Sequence record: MF044457
Source of the DNA: Escherichia phage ST0
DNA: 64,000 nucleotides
Strand: one strand, 5' to 3'
Both the position numbers and the translations under genes were made by a program. The notes beneath the pieces are model-generated. The model was not told the origin of the DNA. It did no database searches and worked only from the letters and a program-made list of their open reading frames with translations. This document shows positions 1-7,973 of this stretch, piece after piece (the stretch's first letter is position 1; each line of letters begins with the position of its first letter).

Positions 1-113
1 ACTACACTGTTCTCCTTGAGAAGACATTTATTAAACCACTTGAAGGATTCACATCAGCAGCGAAACTCGATTACGAGAAGAAAGCATCTCTGTTCGATAT
101 GTTCGATTTTTGA
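1..113 (+). CDS. 43: 3' end of DNA polymerase (gene 43), partial
   Basis: Frame ending TGA at 111-113 translates ...KPLEGFTSAAKLDYEKKASLFDMFDF*; the tail matches the sliding-clamp-binding C-terminal peptide I recall for RB69 polymerase. Position upstream of the 42/uvsX block fits T4 synteny. Confidence 0.6.
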   Translation, partial: YTVLLEKTFIKPLEGFTSAAKLDYEKKASLFDMFDF

Positions 114-153
114 TATAATGACATGGACGGTAAACTAATTAAATGAGAGAAAT

Positions 154-789
154 ATGAAAACTACTCCTATTACTATCGCTATTGACGCAATCATAAAACA
201 AGCTTCTTCTTTGGCCGCTATGGCCAAAGTAATTAGTCAAAACCCTGCTCGTTATAATGCTATTCTAGAAACTCTTCGACGCCCAGGACTTAGTAATTAT
301 GAAAGCCGAGTAATTATTACAGGTGTTGGTAAGAATGCTAATATTGCAACTAAAGCTTCTGAGACATTTGCTTCACTCGGTATCCCGAGTATGTACTTGA
401 ACACCGGGCATTATTCTCACGGTGATGCAGGATTCATTGCGCCTAATGATGTGTTGATTCATATTAGTCGTTCTGGTAAAACTGAAGAAATGATAGGCGT
501 GGCTAAGCATCTTAAAATGATTCGTCCGAACGTCAAACAGATTCTGTTGCATTGTAACCCAGACATTCCACAAGAAAATGAAGCCCTTTTTGATTACTCT
601 TTCTGTACAGGCATCGCAGTAGAGGTTGATGAGAATTCTCTGGCTCCGACCATGTCCACTACATTGTTGTTAGCGCTTATCGATACTTTTGCTATCAACC
701 TTTCGTCTGAGCGTGGATTTACCTCTAATGACTTCCTTAAGTTCCACCCTGGTGGTGCACTAGGTGCCATGTTACGAGGCGAACAATGA
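154..789 (+). CDS. SIS-domain sugar-phosphate isomerase, KdsD/GutQ-like arabinose-5-phosphate isomerase without CBS domains
   Basis: ORF track 211 aa. Motifs typical of the KdsD/KpsF SIS domain: GVGKNANIATK, SHGDAGFI, ISRSGKT, APTMSTT, FHPGGALG. RBS GAGAG upstream. Confidence 0.8.
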   Translation: MKTTPITIAIDAIIKQASSLAAMAKVISQNPARYNAILETLRRPGLSNYESRVIITGVGKNANIATKASETFASLGIPSMYLNTGHYSHGDAGFIAPNDVLIHISRSGKTEEMIGVAKHLKMIRPNVKQILLHCNPDIPQENEALFDYSFCTGIAVEVDENSLAPTMSTTLLLALIDTFAINLSSERGFTSNDFLKFHPGGALGAMLRGEQ

Positions 790-929
790 AAGCAATAACA
801 ATAGGACTTTTACTATTGATGCTTATCATGACTATCTACTGGAGCTTAACGGCTCCGGTAATGATTCCGACTCTTATAATCGGATGGATTATGATTGGAC
901 TACAAGCAAAGTATGAATGCTTTAACTAG
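786..929 (+). CDS. small hydrophobic protein, 47 aa, below ORF-track size cutoff
   Basis: ATG at 786 overlaps the stop of the preceding gene (ATGA). Translation MKAITIGLLLLMLIMTIYWSLTAPVMIPTLIIGWIMIGLQAKYECFN is almost entirely hydrophobic. Confidence 0.35.
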   Translation: MKAITIGLLLLMLIMTIYWSLTAPVMIPTLIIGWIMIGLQAKYECFN

Positions 930-970
930 AATAGTGTACAATACTCCTACTTACCAATGAGGACCACAAT

Positions 971-2656
971 ATGAAAAAAGCTGTTATTCTTGGTGCTGGA
1001 CTGGCAACTCGTTTGTATCCAATAACGCATCATATTCCTAAGGTGCTTGTTAACTATAAACAAGACACTATTCTGAGCAATTTGTATACAATTTATTCTG
1101 ACCTTGGTGCAGACGAAATTATTGTAGTAGTTCATTCAAAATTTGCTGAAACTGTTCGAGCTTATTGTGAGCAAGAAGGGTTCAATGTGACTATTCGTAC
1201 AGTTGATGAAGCATATGGTTCTGCTTATGCTCTTGCTAAATTGCACAAAGATTTAGACGGCCATAATGTAATTGTTAACTGGTGTGATATTATTCCCGAT
1301 TTTGGTTCATGGTCTTGGAATGTTAACGCAATCTATGTTAAGGGTGACGAATGTCGATATAATTTCGACGGTGAAAATATCACTAACGTAGGTTCAACAG
1401 GTGGTAATGTTGTAGGAATTTATCAGTTCAAAGACTGGGAATTCTATATGGGTTCTACTGATGAGGAAATTCATGAATACTGCAAAGGACGTGATTTCGT
1501 AGAATTCCTTTACGGCAGCGCATTCAATAAATCAGAGCTTATGAATCTAATTGATTTAGGTGATATGCCTAAACTTGAAAAAGCTCATGAAGTTCGTGAA
1601 CTTAATCGTAGTTTTAATGCAGTTGAAATCGGTGAAGAAACTGTAACTAAATTCGCATTAACCGAACAGGGCCGAGCTCTTCAGAAAGATGAGATTTCAT
1701 GGTATCTTAAAGTGAAATCAGATTCAGTTCCTCAGTTAGTTTCTGTTAATGAAAATAACTTTGAAATGGAACGCATTAAAGGTAAGCCAGCATTTGAATA
1801 TATTAAATCCAAATCGAGTCTTGCTCGTCCACAAATTGTTGATGCAATTTTAGATGCACTGAAATTCAGCACAGACACTTATTTTGTAAGTCCTGAAACT
1901 GTTCGCCGTGATTTCACTAAAGAGTTCTATACGAAAGTTATTGATCGTTGTGAAAGTATTCAACCATTGATTGATTCATTCGGTAAAATCACACATGTGA
2001 ACTACACTAAGATTGGACGTCTGAAGCCAATGTTGAAACAAGCTTTAGAACACCTTATTCGTTATCATAACCGTTCTCAGGGACAGTACTCTGTTATTCA
2101 TGGTGACCCGAACTTCAGTAATACTATGATTACTGATAATGGTGAAGTCAAGTTTATCGACCCTCGTGGATATTTTGGTGAAACCAAGATTTACGGGCCA
2201 AAATTGTATGATGAAGCTAAAGTGCTTTATGCTGTTTCAGGTTATGATGAATTCAACGCTAATCCGACCTGGGGGCAATTTACTATTGATGAAACAACTT
2301 GTAATGTGACTATTAACATCAATCCATTAGTTTACAAATATGGAAAGATGAGTTCGTTTAACGAGTATCATCATTTGGCAGTTGCAATTATCTGGATTGC
2401 ATTAGGCGGTTATTTCAAGAATAATCCACTTAAAGCGGTAGCCGCATATTATAAAGGTATGGAACTTCTGACTAAGCAATTACGCAACATGGGCCGTGTA
2501 CTTCAGGACGGCTCTATTAGTTATGACGTAGCAGAACCTGTAACGGCTACTCTGATTACAAAAAATCCTGGTAAATGGGTACTAACTGATAAAGAAACTG
2601 GTGTTTCCTATCGTCCAATCGGTGGCGATATCACTCATCAATGGGAACGAATCTAA
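971..2656 (+). CDS. bifunctional sugar-1-phosphate nucleotidyltransferase (N-terminal) / sugar kinase of the choline-kinase/APH fold (C-terminal)
   Basis: ORF track 561 aa. N-terminus ILGAGLATRL is the G-x-G-x-R loop of LicC/RmlA-type nucleotidyltransferases. C-terminal half has HGDPNFSNTMI and FIDPRG, resembling the catalytic loop and DFG-like motif of LicA/APH kinases. RBS GAGGA. Confidence 0.8.
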   Translation: MKKAVILGAGLATRLYPITHHIPKVLVNYKQDTILSNLYTIYSDLGADEIIVVVHSKFAETVRAYCEQEGFNVTIRTVDEAYGSAYALAKLHKDLDGHNVIVNWCDIIPDFGSWSWNVNAIYVKGDECRYNFDGENITNVGSTGGNVVGIYQFKDWEFYMGSTDEEIHEYCKGRDFVEFLYGSAFNKSELMNLIDLGDMPKLEKAHEVRELNRSFNAVEIGEETVTKFALTEQGRALQKDEISWYLKVKSDSVPQLVSVNENNFEMERIKGKPAFEYIKSKSSLARPQIVDAILDALKFSTDTYFVSPETVRRDFTKEFYTKVIDRCESIQPLIDSFGKITHVNYTKIGRLKPMLKQALEHLIRYHNRSQGQYSVIHGDPNFSNTMITDNGEVKFIDPRGYFGETKIYGPKLYDEAKVLYAVSGYDEFNANPTWGQFTIDETTCNVTININPLVYKYGKMSSFNEYHHLAVAIIWIALGGYFKNNPLKAVAAYYKGMELLTKQLRNMGRVLQDGSISYDVAEPVTATLITKNPGKWVLTDKETGVSYRPIGGDITHQWERI

Positions 2657-3042
2657 TGCACCGTGTAGAAAACATGCTTAATCTTTGTTTTGATGTCGAT
2701 GATTGTATAACAGAGTGGAATAACAATCGTGATTACGTGAACTTCAAACCAGACGTCGAAATGGTGTCTGCCATTAATGCCCTGTATGATGCAGGGCATA
2801 CCATAACGCTTTACACTGCTCGCGGTATGAAGTCAGTAGGCCCTGGTCGTATAGCAATTGACATTCTCCCAAGTCTGATTCAGAACTTGGCAAACATTGG
2901 ATTGAAGTACCATAATTTGCTAACACATAAACCAGTATATGATTGGATTATCGACGACAAAGCTATGCGTCCTGACGAATTCAAAGCTCTTATGAATAAA
3001 GGCGAATTCGAAACATTTAAATCATATAAACCGAATCTATAA
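2656..3042 (+). CDS. HAD-superfamily phosphatase-like protein
   Basis: ORF track 2641..3042; start moved to ATG at 2656 overlapping the upstream stop (TAATG). Motif I-like FDVDDC near the N-terminus, T in LYTAR, K in THKP, IIDDK motif IV-like. Confidence 0.6.
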   Translation: MHRVENMLNLCFDVDDCITEWNNNRDYVNFKPDVEMVSAINALYDAGHTITLYTARGMKSVGPGRIAIDILPSLIQNLANIGLKYHNLLTHKPVYDWIIDDKAMRPDEFKALMNKGEFETFKSYKPNL

Positions 3043-3096
3043 TAATTTAAGTAAGACCTGCAAAAACCATCGCAACAATTAACGCGAGATGCAAAA

Positions 3097-4257
3097 ATGA
3101 ATACCTTTAAAATCGGAACGAATTTTGATTTAGCTCTTCTTGATAAAATCGTAGAGCTCAATAAAACTTATCCTAATAGCTTGATAAACGAAGTATACGG
3201 CTCTACAAGAGAAATGGCTTTTGTAGCAGCCAGACCTGATTTTAGGCTTCCTGACGTTGACAAAAAGATGTTAGAAGATTACGTTAAACGTTGTAACGAA
3301 TTAGGTATTTGCTTTAACTATACACTCAACACGATAAATCCTGGTTCAAAAAGAGAACTAGTTGAGTGGAAGAAGAAAGCTATTCAGGATTATGTTCAGT
3401 ATCTTTGGTCAATAGGCGTATGGCGTATTACTATCGCTAACCCTGTTGTTATGGAAATTGTTCGTGAAGTCAATAAAGACATTGAGATTGAAGTTTCAAC
3501 AATTCTACATGTCGATGCTGTAACTCAAATCAAATACTTGCATGACCAATATAATATCAAAAAGGTCTGCTGCGGAATTCATAAGAACCGTTCAGTTTCT
3601 TTCCTGAAGCGTGCAGCAGAGTTTTGTAATAAGAACAATATAATATTTGAAGTTCTTGTAAATGAGTTCTGTTCTAATGCTGGTAAAGGGTATACAACAC
3701 ATTGTAGTTATCGTGACTCTTGCTATATTTTCCATAGCACCGATGTTACAGTAGATGATGCCAAATCTTTAAATGGATATCCAATGCAACATTGTATTAA
3801 AGCTCGTGATACAGATCCATTTAACTGGTTGAGAACTCGTTTTGTTCGTCCTCAAGATTTGAAACTTTATAATGATATTGGTATCACTCAATTCAAAGTT
3901 TCAGGACGTACAGGTAGCACAGACTACATTTTGAAAGTTCTTGAAGCTTATGCTTCTGAAAAGTTTGAAGGTAATTTGTTGGAATTGTGGAAGCCTTTAG
4001 AGACCATTTTCACTCTTGAAAATGAGACTGAGTTTTCACATACGGTAAATATTGAAACCTCTTTGTTAGATGGCTTTTTAGAAAAAAGGTGGTTCAGACA
4101 TCCAGATTTCGATTGTGCTAATGAAATCTGCGGGACGACGTGTACATATTGTGAAAGATATTATAAACGTCAATTATCTAAAAACGGGTTAGCAGAAAAC
4201 TCTATATCTATTATTGATATAACTAACTCTGATGACGCTTTGAGGTACCCGGAATGA
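3097..4257 (+). CDS. Cys-rich protein with U32-family-like signature, function unknown
   Basis: ORF track 386 aa. EVLVNEFCSNAGKGYTTHCSYRDSC resembles the U32 family signature (E-x-F-x2-G-x-x-C...C-x-x-S); C-terminal CANEICGTTCTYC cluster. Confidence 0.55.
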   Translation: MNTFKIGTNFDLALLDKIVELNKTYPNSLINEVYGSTREMAFVAARPDFRLPDVDKKMLEDYVKRCNELGICFNYTLNTINPGSKRELVEWKKKAIQDYVQYLWSIGVWRITIANPVVMEIVREVNKDIEIEVSTILHVDAVTQIKYLHDQYNIKKVCCGIHKNRSVSFLKRAAEFCNKNNIIFEVLVNEFCSNAGKGYTTHCSYRDSCYIFHSTDVTVDDAKSLNGYPMQHCIKARDTDPFNWLRTRFVRPQDLKLYNDIGITQFKVSGRTGSTDYILKVLEAYASEKFEGNLLELWKPLETIFTLENETEFSHTVNIETSLLDGFLEKRWFRHPDFDCANEICGTTCTYCERYYKRQLSKNGLAENSISIIDITNSDDALRYPE

Positions 4258-4397
4258 TTTCTAGAAAAACTTTTAACCACCAACTTAACGAAGAGATTTT
4301 GACTATGAAAATTAACAGCAACGAACAAATTCTTAAAAAGGCCCTAATGGGCCTGTTTGAAACTAAAGCGGCTAAAGTGATTAAAGAACCTGTTTAA
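4254..4397 (+). CDS. small ORF, 47 aa, below ORF-track cutoff
   Basis: ATG overlaps the stop of the preceding gene (ATGA); translation MISRKTFNHQLNEEILTMKINSNEQILKKALMGLFETKAAKVIKEPV. Confidence 0.25.
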   Translation: MISRKTFNHQLNEEILTMKINSNEQILKKALMGLFETKAAKVIKEPV

Positions 4398-4535
4398 TTG
4401 GAATACTACGCTGATGCATTTCTTCATAGTGTTCTTGGAAGTATCGATGCTGAAGCTTTACGTTATATCAACATTGTCAAGAAATTCAAATAAGCTTTAC
4501 GAATTGAGTATATAATAAATTGTATTGAGGTAAAC

Positions 4536-5252
4536 ATGGGAAAACATAACACAATGAAATATATCAAAGCCGCAGATTTTCAAACCGCATTTAAAGCAGT
4601 CAATCGTGAAATTTTAGAAAACCCGGAATTCGTAACTGATTCTCGTATTGGACGTTGTAATGAAATTGGGTCTATGACAGTAGTTGTTGACACTCCGTCA
4701 TCATTCAAAATGACTGACCCACGTATTAACCGCATCTCTTATGAATATGCCGAAGACTTCTGGAAGTTTATGATTTCTGGTGGTACCAACGCAGAAGAAG
4801 CGTTTAAGGCATATCCTAATGTCGCTAAATTTATTTCTAAACCAAAATCAGATGTTTTGCCGGCGAACTTCAACACTTTCTATGGTCCTCGCATTGTGGC
4901 CCAATTACCAGCTCTTCTAAAAGAACTTAAAGAGAAGCCTAACTCTCGAAGAGTTGTGTTCCAAATTCTAGAAAGTTCTGATCAGGCTTTGCTTGATTCG
5001 GACGAAACACTTGAATATCCATGTACTGACTCAGTGACTTATTATATTCGCGATGGTAAGCTTTATACCCACTGTCATATGCGTTCTCAGAACTGTGCTG
5101 TTGTTATGCAGTTGGATTTTTATCTCCAAGGAAAATTACTTCATTATATCGCTAACGAATGTGGTGTAGAAGTTGGTGATTATACTCATACCATGGTAAG
5201 TGCCCATGTGTTTGAACGTGATTTTGATTATGTTAAAGGATTCCTTGACTAA
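4536..5252 (+). CDS. 42: thymidylate-synthase-fold pyrimidine hydroxymethylase, gene 42 (dCMP hydroxymethylase) position
   Basis: ORF track 238 aa. NSRRVVFQI, YPCTDSVTYYIRDGK and HMRSQNCAV parallel the SRR, catalytic Cys and MRSND regions I recall for T4 gp42, but overall divergent. RBS GAGGT. Confidence 0.7.
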   Translation: MGKHNTMKYIKAADFQTAFKAVNREILENPEFVTDSRIGRCNEIGSMTVVVDTPSSFKMTDPRINRISYEYAEDFWKFMISGGTNAEEAFKAYPNVAKFISKPKSDVLPANFNTFYGPRIVAQLPALLKELKEKPNSRRVVFQILESSDQALLDSDETLEYPCTDSVTYYIRDGKLYTHCHMRSQNCAVVMQLDFYLQGKLLHYIANECGVEVGDYTHTMVSAHVFERDFDYVKGFLD

Positions 5253-6151
5253 TGGCTATTTTCCGCGTACCTATCTTGAGTATGCGGTCTTATGAAACTG
5301 GACAGTATGCTATCCTTAAGGATGGCAACTTCCAACTTCATTTGCACCGTGCTAATCCGGGTGATGTGATTACATATCCACGTAATGCATCTGATATTAA
5401 AGAATGTGAACGTCTTTTCCCAGAATTTAAGTTTGTTCCATTATGGTATAAAGATAACGCGTATAACACTCGTAAATATTTCTGGTCTGAAAATGAATTT
5501 GTGGTTGATTCATTAATTGCTTATTATGATTGTGATTTTCTAATCACAGATATCACTGGATACGACGGCGCTTTTGACGTAGAATTCAATTTCAATATCA
5601 CTGCAGACCCTAATAAACCACGTTTTTATATTGACGAATTCTTAAAAACCGATATGTTGTCGGTTAATCGTTCACTTCAAACTACCGTGTTGAATAAACG
5701 TCAAAAGGAAGTGCTGGTTAACGCTGGTGCAGATGGTAATAAGATTATCGTAACGCAGAAAGTTATACGTCCTTCCATCATGCAGCGTCTTGTAGGTGAT
5801 TTGGCTCCTATTCATCTAGATGGTATTTTTCATCCATTTCGAATTAGTGACCCGTGCTATCGTTTTGAACAAGTGGTTGAATGTGCAATTCAATTAGGCC
5901 AACCGCTTTATATAACCGATCCAAATAATAGCTTCGACAGAAATAAGTATCCTGAAGAAGCGCTGATTCGAATTTTTAAACCAACTAAAACTGAGTACTA
6001 TCAAATTCTTAAAGGACGGCCGAAGATTCAATATTTCGAAAATCCTGAAGAAGTATTCCATCCAGGTCTTGGTGAGTTCATCTACTTTAATGCTTTAATT
6101 TCTTCACCGTATAATATACCTAAATACGAAGATGTCGTAATCGAGGAATAA
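5252..6151 (+). CDS. hypothetical protein at the beta-glucosyltransferase locus
   Basis: ORF track 299 aa; start overlaps the stop of the hydroxymethylase gene by 1 nt. No motif recognised. Confidence 0.5.
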   Translation: MAIFRVPILSMRSYETGQYAILKDGNFQLHLHRANPGDVITYPRNASDIKECERLFPEFKFVPLWYKDNAYNTRKYFWSENEFVVDSLIAYYDCDFLITDITGYDGAFDVEFNFNITADPNKPRFYIDEFLKTDMLSVNRSLQTTVLNKRQKEVLVNAGADGNKIIVTQKVIRPSIMQRLVGDLAPIHLDGIFHPFRISDPCYRFEQVVECAIQLGQPLYITDPNNSFDRNKYPEEALIRIFKPTKTEYYQILKGRPKIQYFENPEEVFHPGLGEFIYFNALISSPYNIPKYEDVVIEE

Positions 6152-6152
6152 A

Positions 6153-6701
6153 ATGGCTAAAATTATTTTAGTAGATGGCCCAGATAATGCTGGTAAAACA
6201 ACTTTCATTAATGACATAATGGAAATTAGTGAAAGATATGTAAAGATTGATTTCCCTAAACGAACAGTTGATGGACGTTTCGATGTTAAGTCTCGAAATG
6301 AAGTTGGCTGTTTCGAAACGATGTTGAATTATTTAGACCCTACTAAGATTTATCTGTTAGACCGTGGATATATTAGTAACTGGGTTTATGGACGTATTCG
6401 ACAAGATGCGGACTCGGTTCTTGACGTTTATGAACAGGATTATGTTCGTCTTTGCCAAAACCATGATGTGTTCACAATTATTTTAACACGTAACGAAATG
6501 ACTGAAAGTTTTGAAGACGATCTTATTACTTTGTCTTCATTCGGTTTTAATACAGTCATTTCATATTTTGAAGAGTTTGCAATTCATAACAAAATCCAAA
6601 CGTATCAATTACTTAATCATGACGGTGCTAACAAAGTTATAGGATTTAATGCAAGCGAACGTAATTATTTGATTACAGAAATTATCAAATGGGCTCGTTA
6701 A
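6153..6701 (+). CDS. P-loop NTPase, small nucleotide/sugar-kinase-like
   Basis: ORF track 182 aa; Walker A GPDNAGKTT at residues 9-17; starts 1 nt after the upstream stop. Confidence 0.6.
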   Translation: MAKIILVDGPDNAGKTTFINDIMEISERYVKIDFPKRTVDGRFDVKSRNEVGCFETMLNYLDPTKIYLLDRGYISNWVYGRIRQDADSVLDVYEQDYVRLCQNHDVFTIILTRNEMTESFEDDLITLSSFGFNTVISYFEEFAIHNKIQTYQLLNHDGANKVIGFNASERNYLITEIIKWAR

Positions 6702-6800
6702 GAGCCTGTTTAAAGTTTTAAATGCTGTATAACCCTTAGTATATAATCGTCTTATCTTTTAAACATGAGTAAAATATAATGATGCCTATGGAAAAATACA

Positions 6801-7973
6801 ATGTCTGATTTAAAATCTCGTCTGATTAAAGCTTCTACTTCTAAAATGACTGCAGACTTGACTAAGTCTAAGCTGTTTAATAATCGTGATGAAGTCCCTA
6901 CTCGTATTCCGATGTTGAATATTGCATTAGGTGGTGCACTGAATGCCGGGTTGCAATCAGGCTTAACTATTTTTGCTGCTCCTTCTAAACACTTTAAAAC
7001 GTTGTTTGGACTGACCATGGTTGCAGCATATATGAAGAAATATAAAGATGCAATCTGTTTGTTCTATGATTCAGAATTTGGTGCTTCAGAATCTTATTTT
7101 CGTTCAATGGGTGTTGATTTAGACCGTGTAGTTCATACTCCGATTCAATCTGTCGAACAACTTAAAGTTGATATGACTAATCAGCTTGACGCTATTGAAC
7201 GCGGTGATAAAGTTATTATCTTTATCGATTCAATCGGTAATACTGCATCTAAGAAAGAAACTGAAGATGCATTGAACGAGAAAGTTGTAGGTGATATGTC
7301 TCGTGCTAAGGCACTTAAATCTCTGTTCCGCATTGTGACTCCTTATCTGACTATTAAAGATATTCCATGTGTTGCAATCAACCATACAGCAATGGAAATC
7401 GGTGGATTGTATCCTAAAGAGATTATGGGTGGTGGTACAGGTATTCTTTACTCTGCTAACACTGTATTCTTTATCTCTAAACGTCAGGTTAAAGAAGGTA
7501 CAGAATTGACCGGTTATGACTTCACGTTGAAAGCAGAAAAATCTCGCACCGTTAAAGAAAAATCTACTTTCCCAATCACGGTTAATTTTGATGGCGGTAT
7601 TGACCCATTCAGTGGCTTGTTAGAAATGGCAACTGAAATTGGTTTTGTGGTTAAGCCTAAAGCTGGGTGGTATGCTCGTGAATTTCTTGACGAAGAAACA
7701 GGTGAAATGATTCGTGAAGAAAAATCATGGCGTGCTAAAGCTACTGATTGTGTAGAATTCTGGGGGCCGTTGTTTAAACACAAACCTTTCCGAGATGCAA
7801 TTGAAACTAAATATAAACTAGGTGCTATCTCTTCTATTAAAGAAGTTGATGACGCTGTTAACGACCTTATTAATTGCAAAGCAACAACTAAAGTTCCGGT
7901 TAAAACTTCTGATGCTCCGTCTGCAGCAGATATAGAAAACGACCTTGACGAAATGGAAGATTTCGATGAATAA
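6801..7973 (+). CDS. uvsX: UvsX RecA-like recombinase
   Basis: 390 aa; near-collinear with T4 UvsX as I recall it (MSDLKSRLIKASTSK..., GWYAREFLDEETGEMIREEKSWRAK). Confidence 0.95.
   Translation: MSDLKSRLIKASTSKMTADLTKSKLFNNRDEVPTRIPMLNIALGGALNAGLQSGLTIFAAPSKHFKTLFGLTMVAAYMKKYKDAICLFYDSEFGASESYFRSMGVDLDRVVHTPIQSVEQLKVDMTNQLDAIERGDKVIIFIDSIGNTASKKETEDALNEKVVGDMSRAKALKSLFRIVTPYLTIKDIPCVAINHTAMEIGGLYPKEIMGGGTGILYSANTVFFISKRQVKEGTELTGYDFTLKAEKSRTVKEKSTFPITVNFDGGIDPFSGLLEMATEIGFVVKPKAGWYAREFLDEETGEMIREEKSWRAKATDCVEFWGPLFKHKPFRDAIETKYKLGAISSIKEVDDAVNDLINCKATTKVPVKTSDAPSAADIENDLDEMEDFDE

Follow-up and report, generated by a model that had tools for sequence, protein, structure and literature searches.

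The DNA of phage RB69 carries arabinosylated 5-hydroxycytosine (5hoC), with cytosine fully replaced, and the RB69 protein gp48, a flavin-binding ThyA homolog, makes 5-hydroxy-deoxycytidine monophosphate (5-hydroxy-dCMP) with an oxygen atom that comes from 18O2 (Lee et al., NAR 2026, PMC13326640). In the same study this synthase and a kinase sufficed for the formation of 5-hydroxydeoxycytidine (5hodC) in E. coli, and gp50 was listed in Table 1 only, as 'Sugar or heterocycle reductase' based on a match to the structure 5d88, the text being silent on it; the discussion noted that the two known pathways of RNA pyrimidine hydroxylation use unrelated enzymes and did not connect gp50 with them (PMC13326640). 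Here the homolog of gp50 in Escherichia phage ST0 was analyzed, a U32-family gene at positions 3097..4257 (plus strand) of a 64,000-nucleotide stretch of sequence record MF044457, which is referred to as the window. The favored reading, to which a probability of roughly 55% is given, is that this gene encodes a prephenate-dependent, O2-independent C5 hydroxylase of cytosine deoxynucleotides, which forms a dual pathway with the 5-hydroxy-dCMP synthase encoded nearby.

The closest described systems are U32 proteins that act on other substrates. UbiU and UbiV carry cysteine-ligated [4Fe-4S] clusters, one in each subunit of a heterodimer, need UbiT and act on a lipid, and the flavin monooxygenases UbiI/H/F perform the step aerobically; the phage protein combines two conserved groups of four cysteines (Cys4) in one chain, and its proposed substrate is a soluble nucleotide. 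For UbiU/V, donation of the oxygen by prephenate has been proven, the chorismate mutase domain of PheA alone restores the pathway, and prephenate-dependent hydroxylation has been proposed to be general to U32 proteins (PMC10990095). RlhA (YdcP), the 23S rRNA 5-hydroxycytidine-2501 synthase, depends on prephenate and iron (PMC10990095, PMC6747719) and shares with the phage protein the U32 triose-phosphate isomerase (TIM) barrel and, as proposed here, the placement of a C5-hydroxyl on cytosine. RlhA differs in its 653 amino acids, extra domains, rRNA substrate and canonical CX6CX15CX3C motif, whereas the phage protein has 386 amino acids, a C-terminal CX4CX3CX2C cluster of its own and a gene context pointing to deoxynucleotides. 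TrhP and TrhO, which form 5-hydroxyuridine at position 34 (ho5U34) of tRNA (Sakai et al. 2019, PMC6599085), resemble the arrangement proposed for the phage in that an O2-dependent enzyme and a prephenate-dependent U32 enzyme together would serve the whole oxygen range. TrhO is of the rhodanese type, whereas the O2-dependent partner in the phage is the flavin-binding ThyA homolog, the proposed substrate is a DNA precursor and the genes lie side by side in a virus. The synthases RB69 gp48, DLP3 gp80 and that of HY126 would share product and pathway with the U32 protein, from which they differ by an unrelated fold and by the use of flavin and O2, and their function is experimentally established where that of the U32 protein is inferred. 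The aerobic and anaerobic ribonucleotide reductases of T-even phages echo the proposed dual logic, and nrdD is a landmark flanking the region in RB69.

The U32 gene of the window, recognized as an open reading frame (ORF) with an ATG start, encodes a protein that matched the Pfam profile Peptidase_U32 (PF01136) over residues 94-286 (E 6.3e-11, 42.4 bits, gathering cut-off 22.4 bits), which bears out the family membership proposed in the initial annotation, and PHROG phrog_5757 'peptidase' covered the whole protein (E 1.8e-266). Its identity is 99.2% to RB69 gp50 (RB69p050, NP_861740.1), which is the same gene, annotated as 'peptidase' besides the reductase label, and 99.5% to the HY126 copy. 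Database labels for the gene are 'peptidase' and 'collagenase-like protease', with 'hypothetical protein' in the HY126 record and 'putative peptidase' in that of LC53. In phage OLB35 the gene is annotated as two ORFs encoding 269 and 108 amino acids (BFVD A0A3G3MCS7 and A0A3G3MCT7), which may be due to a frameshift or a sequencing error, split ORFs being known in the RB69 record.

An AlphaFold2 model of the protein had a predicted local distance difference test (pLDDT) score of 90.8, and its top match in a Foldseek search of the PDB was the U32 peptidase Mk0906 (5d88; E 3.3e-7, template modeling score 0.72, target-normalized), followed by generic TIM barrels. The phage protein is thus a U32-family member with, as modeled, the U32 TIM-barrel fold. 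The sole U32 structure among the Foldseek matches to the PDB was 5d88, with none for UbiU/V, RlhA or TrhP; a sequence search of the PDB returned no significant relative, and a structure search of BFVD yielded nothing beyond near-identical phage copies and generic TIM barrels. By profile comparison with hhalign, the closest E. coli paralog was RlhA (probability 82%, E 1e-5), followed by TrhP (9%), UbiU (4%) and UbiV (0.6%), so that the pointer of the initial annotation to the O2-independent hydroxylases RlhA, TrhP and UbiU/V proved productive.

In an alignment that included E. coli UbiU, UbiV, RlhA and TrhP, C203 and C209 of the phage protein aligned with C169/C176 of UbiU, C169/C176 of RlhA and C170/C177 of TrhP. 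C169 and C176 of UbiU are experimentally defined ligands of its [4Fe-4S] cluster (PMC6747719). Both phage residues lie, together with C192, in the U32 signature region EVLVNEFCSNAGKGYTTHCSYRDSC (residues 185-209; 3649..3723, plus strand). This region had initially been said to fit the U32 signature, which holds for its homology, C203 and C209 aligning with the UbiU ligands, and does not hold for the strict PROSITE pattern. The phage subfamily has an insertion of 10-14 residues that bears C192, and a CX5C spacing where the U32 family has CX6C, and the core cysteine pattern of the phage protein is C-X10-C-X5-C-X23-C. Its last member, C233 (codon at 3793..3795, plus strand), would be the fourth ligand of a core iron-sulfur (Fe-S) cluster; C192 and C233 are invariant, yet outside the canonical ligand positions.

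A second group of cysteines lies at the C-terminus (4114..4152, plus strand), where the cluster noted earlier is real and conserved, with the spacing C340-X4-C345-X3-C349-X2-C352 and not CxxxC-xxx-CxxC. Ten of the 13 cysteines (C158, C177, C192, C203, C209, C233, C340, C345, C349 and C352) were invariant in 30 homologs of 47-87% identity, and among 37 homologs down to 26% identity, in which the clusters were still kept, C192, C203, C233 and C352 were invariant and C340, C345 and C349 were at least 90% conserved. This conservation suggests that the U32 protein probably binds Fe-S clusters and that the C-terminal CX4CX3CX2C group may be a second metal or Fe-S site. By analogy, the two Cys4 groups in one chain may mirror the two clusters of the UbiU-UbiV heterodimer.

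The U32 gene is located inside a DNA-modification cassette that has no T4 counterpart, as had been noted initially. The first 7 kb of the window are about 98.6% identical to Mosigvirus genomes, among them S143_2, JS09 and phi25-307, and positions 154-6701 hold the full gene set of the arabinosyl-5-hydroxycytosine cassette (RB69/HY126 type) in the order found in RB69, all on the plus strand. Profile matches and the literature identify, upstream of the U32 gene, a SIS/KpsF-like arabinose-5-phosphate isomerase (154..789, RB69 gp55), a bifunctional sugar kinase/nucleotidyltransferase (971..2656, RB69 gp52:53, AfhE-like) and a HAD-type sugar phosphatase (2641..3042, RB69 gp51, AfhF-like). The U32 stop codon is overlapped (ATGA) by a small ORF for 47 amino acids (4254..4397), a homolog of RB69 ORF049c. 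The synthase gene (4536..5252), which starts 280 nucleotides downstream of the U32 gene, matched Pfam Thymidylat_synt with 57.8 bits, and its product is 98.7% identical to RB69 gp48 (ORF048c). PHROG matches, the literature and homologs at distant loci support a candidate DNA arabinosyltransferase 1 (5252..6151, RB69 gp46:47) and a thymidylate-kinase-like (TMK-like) nucleotide kinase (6153..6701, RB69 gp45), after which the UvsX gene follows. A scan of positions 1-7000 for promoters and terminators gave site numbers at chance level; a sigma-70-like TTTAAA-16-TATAAT element was seen at 3016-3043, in the 54-nucleotide gap that precedes the start codon of U32.

The identity of 98.7% to gp48 makes the neighboring ThyA homolog an O2-dependent hydroxylase and not the dCMP hydroxymethylase that had first been assumed; the gene at 4536-5252 is labeled thymidylate synthase or dCMP hydroxymethylase in many GenBank records. 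The additional oxidation of base or sugar that was suggested with it loses ground in the same way: as the modified base is arabinosyl-5-hydroxycytosine and not a glycosylated hydroxymethylcytosine, the U32 protein most likely provides a second route to the same C5-hydroxyl and not an extra oxidation step, and a role on the sugar is disfavored because Acinetobacter phages make arabinosylated 5-hydroxycytosine without a U32 gene.

Chorismate mutase, the product of which is prephenate, is encoded between U32 and the synthase in most T4-like genera other than that of the window. In Entb_45 (Enterobacter) and LC53 (Serratia), the gene between those for U32 and synthase passes Pfam CM_2 with 40.9 and 44.6 bits (cut-off 27 bits) and overlaps both neighbors at stop/start codons. 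The gene is of the small AroQ type and translationally coupled between U32 and synthase, as at the loci L006 (6158-6397) and L007 (5660-6004). By tblastn, the phage chorismate mutase was found in 54 phage records; the hosts among the matches listed belong to roughly a dozen genera and included Klebsiella, Serratia, Yersinia, Enterobacter, Proteus, Erwinia, Edwardsiella, Providencia, Pectobacterium, Morganella, Kosakonia, Shewanella and Escherichia (EcS1), and among the matches listed with annotation it always adjoined the U32 gene, the ThyA-homolog gene or both. Its annotation is mostly 'hypothetical protein', and besides Kanagawavirus and Winklervirus many further T4-like genera have it.

In the window, the slot occupied by chorismate mutase in these other genera is held by the ORF049c homolog. 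It encodes 79 amino acids and is intact in RB69 and at IMG/VR locus L013 (window equivalent 4254-4493), and it is interrupted in the window by a CAA to TAA change relative to RB69 at 4395-4397 (codon 48). The ORF at 4254-4397 had no CM_2 match in Pfam at E <= 10 and scored below 1 bit against a hidden Markov model built from the phage chorismate mutases. A degenerate chorismate mutase was considered for ORF049 and rejected for want of any such signal, its N-terminus alone resembling the N-terminal extension of the LC53 chorismate mutase. The phage of the window, a Mosigvirus, thus has no recognizable chorismate mutase, and in Mosigviruses host prephenate would have to serve the U32 enzyme.

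The U32 gene and the synthase gene differ in their distribution among isolated phages. U32 was found in 220 isolate-phage records, all at least 80% identical to the window protein and with no match below that level, and the host genera among the matches listed were all Enterobacterales or Shewanella, which are facultative anaerobes (a tally that leaves out 12 records in 7 name groups). The synthase was found in 372 records, including 57 of Acinetobacter and 20 of Rhizobium phages. The published DLP3 cluster contains neither U32 nor chorismate mutase (PMC13326640). The cassette of Acinetobacter phage Maestro lacks both U32 and chorismate mutase, and its HAD gene directly adjoins that for the synthase. 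Acinetobacter is a strict aerobe.

Homologs of the U32 protein extend to uncultivated phages. The subfamily comprised 1,181 clusters (50% identity) at E <= 1e-3 and 111 at E <= 1e-30, mostly from uncultivated sources, with mostly full-length members of about 350-390 amino acids. Forty IMG/VR loci (15 T4-like, 25 distant) were scanned for gene content with phmmer probes, the distant phages being viewed about 10 kb to either side of U32. All 15 T4-like loci contained the isomerase, kinase/nucleotidyltransferase, HAD phosphatase, U32, synthase, glycosyltransferase and kinase; chorismate mutase was absent from two of them, the Mosigvirus locus and one other. At the 25 distant loci, which lie on non-T4-like contigs of up to 230 kb, U32 was 40-55% identical and adjoined homologs of the glycosyltransferase of the window, with overlapping genes in several cases. 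Eight of these loci also carried the arabinose-5-phosphate isomerase and the kinase/nucleotidyltransferase, other distant loci carried TMK-like kinases, MazG or dCMP deaminase, and homologs of the HAD phosphatase were seen as well.

Four of the distant loci (L042, L038, L039 and L041) carried a fusion of 3-deoxy-D-arabino-heptulosonate 7-phosphate (DAHP) synthase and chorismate mutase one gene upstream of U32, with both domains confirmed by Pfam in L042 (8332-9384; 84.8 and 86.1 bits) and L038 (8411-9430; 88.7 and 71.8 bits). The fusion-bearing phages thus encode the first committed step of the shikimate pathway together with the prephenate-forming step. No ThyA-family ORF was found within 10 kb of U32 at the distant loci, even by profile at E <= 10, except at L029, where the match was a canonical thymidylate synthase (243.6 bits) and not synthase-like. 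With no synthase-like ThyA homolog nearby, U32 is therefore the sole candidate in the distant cassettes for the hydroxyl that the glycosyltransferase needs.

Two further settings of U32 were observed. On a 466-kb phage contig (JGI contig Ga0672870_0000001, L001), U32 directly follows dCMP deaminase and has as neighbors a MazG/dUTPase-like pyrophosphatase, a radical S-adenosylmethionine (SAM)/SPASM protein, a TMK-like kinase, a uracil-DNA glycosylase, a DnaE polymerase and a glycosyltransferase-like protein, and a 60-kb contig has the same layout. Positions 900-12000 of L001 also hold a 402-amino-acid protein with a weak queuosine-mannosyltransferase-like match and, beside U32, an uncharacterized protein of 254 amino acids. 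This cassette looks like an uncharacterized pyrimidine hypermodification pathway without a ThyA homolog. On an 86-kb ENA contig of bacterial or prophage-like appearance (L002, 7100-17500), two U32 paralogs, the second more divergent, are accompanied by an NT5C 5'-deoxynucleotidase, a deoxynucleoside kinase, a PnuC-type transporter, a nucleoside 2-deoxyribosyltransferase, a radical-SAM/SPASM protein, methyltransferases and a phage GP88-like protein. This cluster may serve the modification or salvage of nucleosides. Radical-SAM/SPASM genes occur near U32 in L001 and L042 as well.

Under the proposed mechanism, the substrate of the U32 enzyme would most likely be dCMP, and prephenate would donate the oxygen atom, as it does for UbiU/V and, by genetics, for RlhA and TrhP, with the prephenate supplied by the host or, in other genera, by the phage chorismate mutase. 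The enzyme would oxidize and hydroxylate dCMP while the core and the C-terminal CX4CX3CX2C clusters relay electrons. The resulting 5-hydroxy-dCMP would be converted to the triphosphate by the phage kinases and incorporated by the polymerase, and arabinose would then be attached by the glycosyltransferases. The cassette context and the pattern in which U32 and the synthase substitute for each other lead us to infer independence of O2, and the U32 enzyme would accordingly offer a second route to 5-hydroxy-dCMP, the arabinosylation acceptor, during anaerobic growth of the host, when the flavin- and O2-dependent synthase cannot work.

A broader form of this proposal, taken as a whole, stands at about even chances. 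In it, a virus-encoded prephenate-dependent U32 hydroxylase would act on soluble DNA precursors, namely dCMP or, in some phages, dUMP. In T4-like phages of facultative anaerobes it would make up an aerobic/anaerobic dual pathway together with the flavin ThyA-like synthase; in many uncultivated phages, probably of anaerobes, the O-glycosylated pyrimidines of the DNA would owe their hydroxyl to U32 alone, and the phage would raise its prephenate supply by its own chorismate mutase or by the DAHP-synthase/chorismate-mutase fusion. The gene has been annotated for twenty years and its membership in the U32 family is known; within the literature searched, the assignment as an anaerobic, prephenate-fed DNA-base hydroxylase is new, and the papers on Thanatos and on the Durham collection do not discuss the U32 gene.

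Several observations weigh against the proposed hydroxylase. The profile similarity of the phage protein to the characterized U32 hydroxylases is weak, and the canonical CX6CX15CX3/4C motif is half conserved. The strict PROSITE pattern PS01276, E-x-F-x(2)-G-[SA]-[LIVM]-C-x(4)-G-x-C-x-[LIVM]-S, is unmatched because the insertion carries C192 and the spacing is CX5C. The phage of the window has no recognizable chorismate mutase, and its link to prephenate is by homology only. In the distant genomes, the synthase may be located farther than about 10 kb from U32. E. coli Dhakavirus VR5 has the synthase without U32 although its host is a facultative anaerobe, so that the correlation with the host runs one way only; a strict rule equating the presence of U32 with a facultatively anaerobic host was rejected on account of this phage. 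The VR5 locus (L009, 5800-10600) contains the kinase/nucleotidyltransferase, HAD, kinase, synthase and glycosyltransferase genes and has neither U32 nor chorismate mutase nor a recognizable arabinose-5-phosphate isomerase, which makes it a natural 'minus-U32' comparator on an E. coli host. Direct hydroxylase activity in vitro is still to be demonstrated for any member of the U32 family (Ferizhendi et al. 2024). A search of the literature, which did not extend to every recent paper on the modification, found no link between phage U32, chorismate mutase and anaerobic 5-hydroxycytosine, and work outside it may hold contrary or prior data.

The same C5 chemistry could be performed on the polymer, with U32 hydroxylating cytosine in replicated DNA instead of dCMP. 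The characterized pyrimidine-hydroxylating U32 proteins, RlhA and TrhP, do act on RNA polymers, and RlhA is the nearest E. coli paralog, but the phage protein lacks the large C-terminal extension of RlhA (386 versus 653 amino acids). U32 is moreover repeatedly linked to genes of the nucleotide pool (dCMP deaminase, MazG-type pyrophosphatase and TMK-like kinases) and, in L002, to the deoxynucleoside kinase, NT5C and the nucleoside deoxyribosyltransferase, and the complete replacement of cytosine in RB69 DNA fits a route that precedes replication. Hydroxylation at the polymer level is therefore considered unlikely.

It is also improbable that U32 is an accessory redox protein, the 'sugar or heterocycle reductase' of PMC13326640 Table 1, which would, for example, supply electrons to the flavin of the synthase or remove them from it, or modify the pentose. 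Two conserved cysteine clusters would suit electron transfer, but the published label comes without data or discussion, and this reading leaves unexplained why chorismate mutase and DAHP synthase genes recur beside U32. The distant phages have U32 with no synthase nearby, the synthase and the kinase alone give 5hodC in E. coli, and arabinosyl-5-hydroxycytosine is made by Acinetobacter phages without U32.

The known pyrimidine functions of U32 proteins are RNA modifications, and T-even phages encode tRNAs, so that the phage enzyme might instead tune translation during infection by forming ho5U34 in phage or host tRNAs or 5-hydroxycytidine (ho5C) in rRNA. Such a role is very unlikely for a gene that is embedded in, and translationally coupled to, a DNA-modification cassette: in isolate phages U32 always occurs with the 5hodCMP-synthase and arabinosylation genes, with no match outside such cassettes, and in the distant phages its neighbors include homologs of DNA glycosyltransferases as well as nucleotide kinases. 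The reading of GenBank annotations that follow the historical family name and database labels, by which the protein would be a true peptidase or collagenase, was rejected on gene context and is scarcely credible, since the U32 members with an assigned cellular role are all linked to hydroxylation and neither the conserved cysteine clusters nor the nucleotide-metabolism context fits a protease.

The 5-hydroxycytosine/arabinose modification was worked out in 2025-2026 with a hydroxylase that needs O2, yet gut hosts often grow without oxygen. If the prephenate-dependent C5 hydroxylase proposed here is real, it would account for the upkeep in the gut of the modification and of the shielding from restriction and CRISPR that comes with it, gp50 would gain a role, and the protein would mark the first link of a U32 enzyme to DNA and the first occurrence of such an enzyme in a virus. 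As U32 enzymes are so far known to act on a lipid and on folded RNAs, prephenate-dependent hydroxylation would be far easier to reconstitute with one that acts on a nucleotide monophosphate. In phage-therapy candidates of this type, the DNA modification may vary with oxygen. The cassettes without a ThyA homolog suggest that phages of anaerobes have a widespread and hitherto unrecognized way of forming DNA bases that are hydroxylated and glycosylated.

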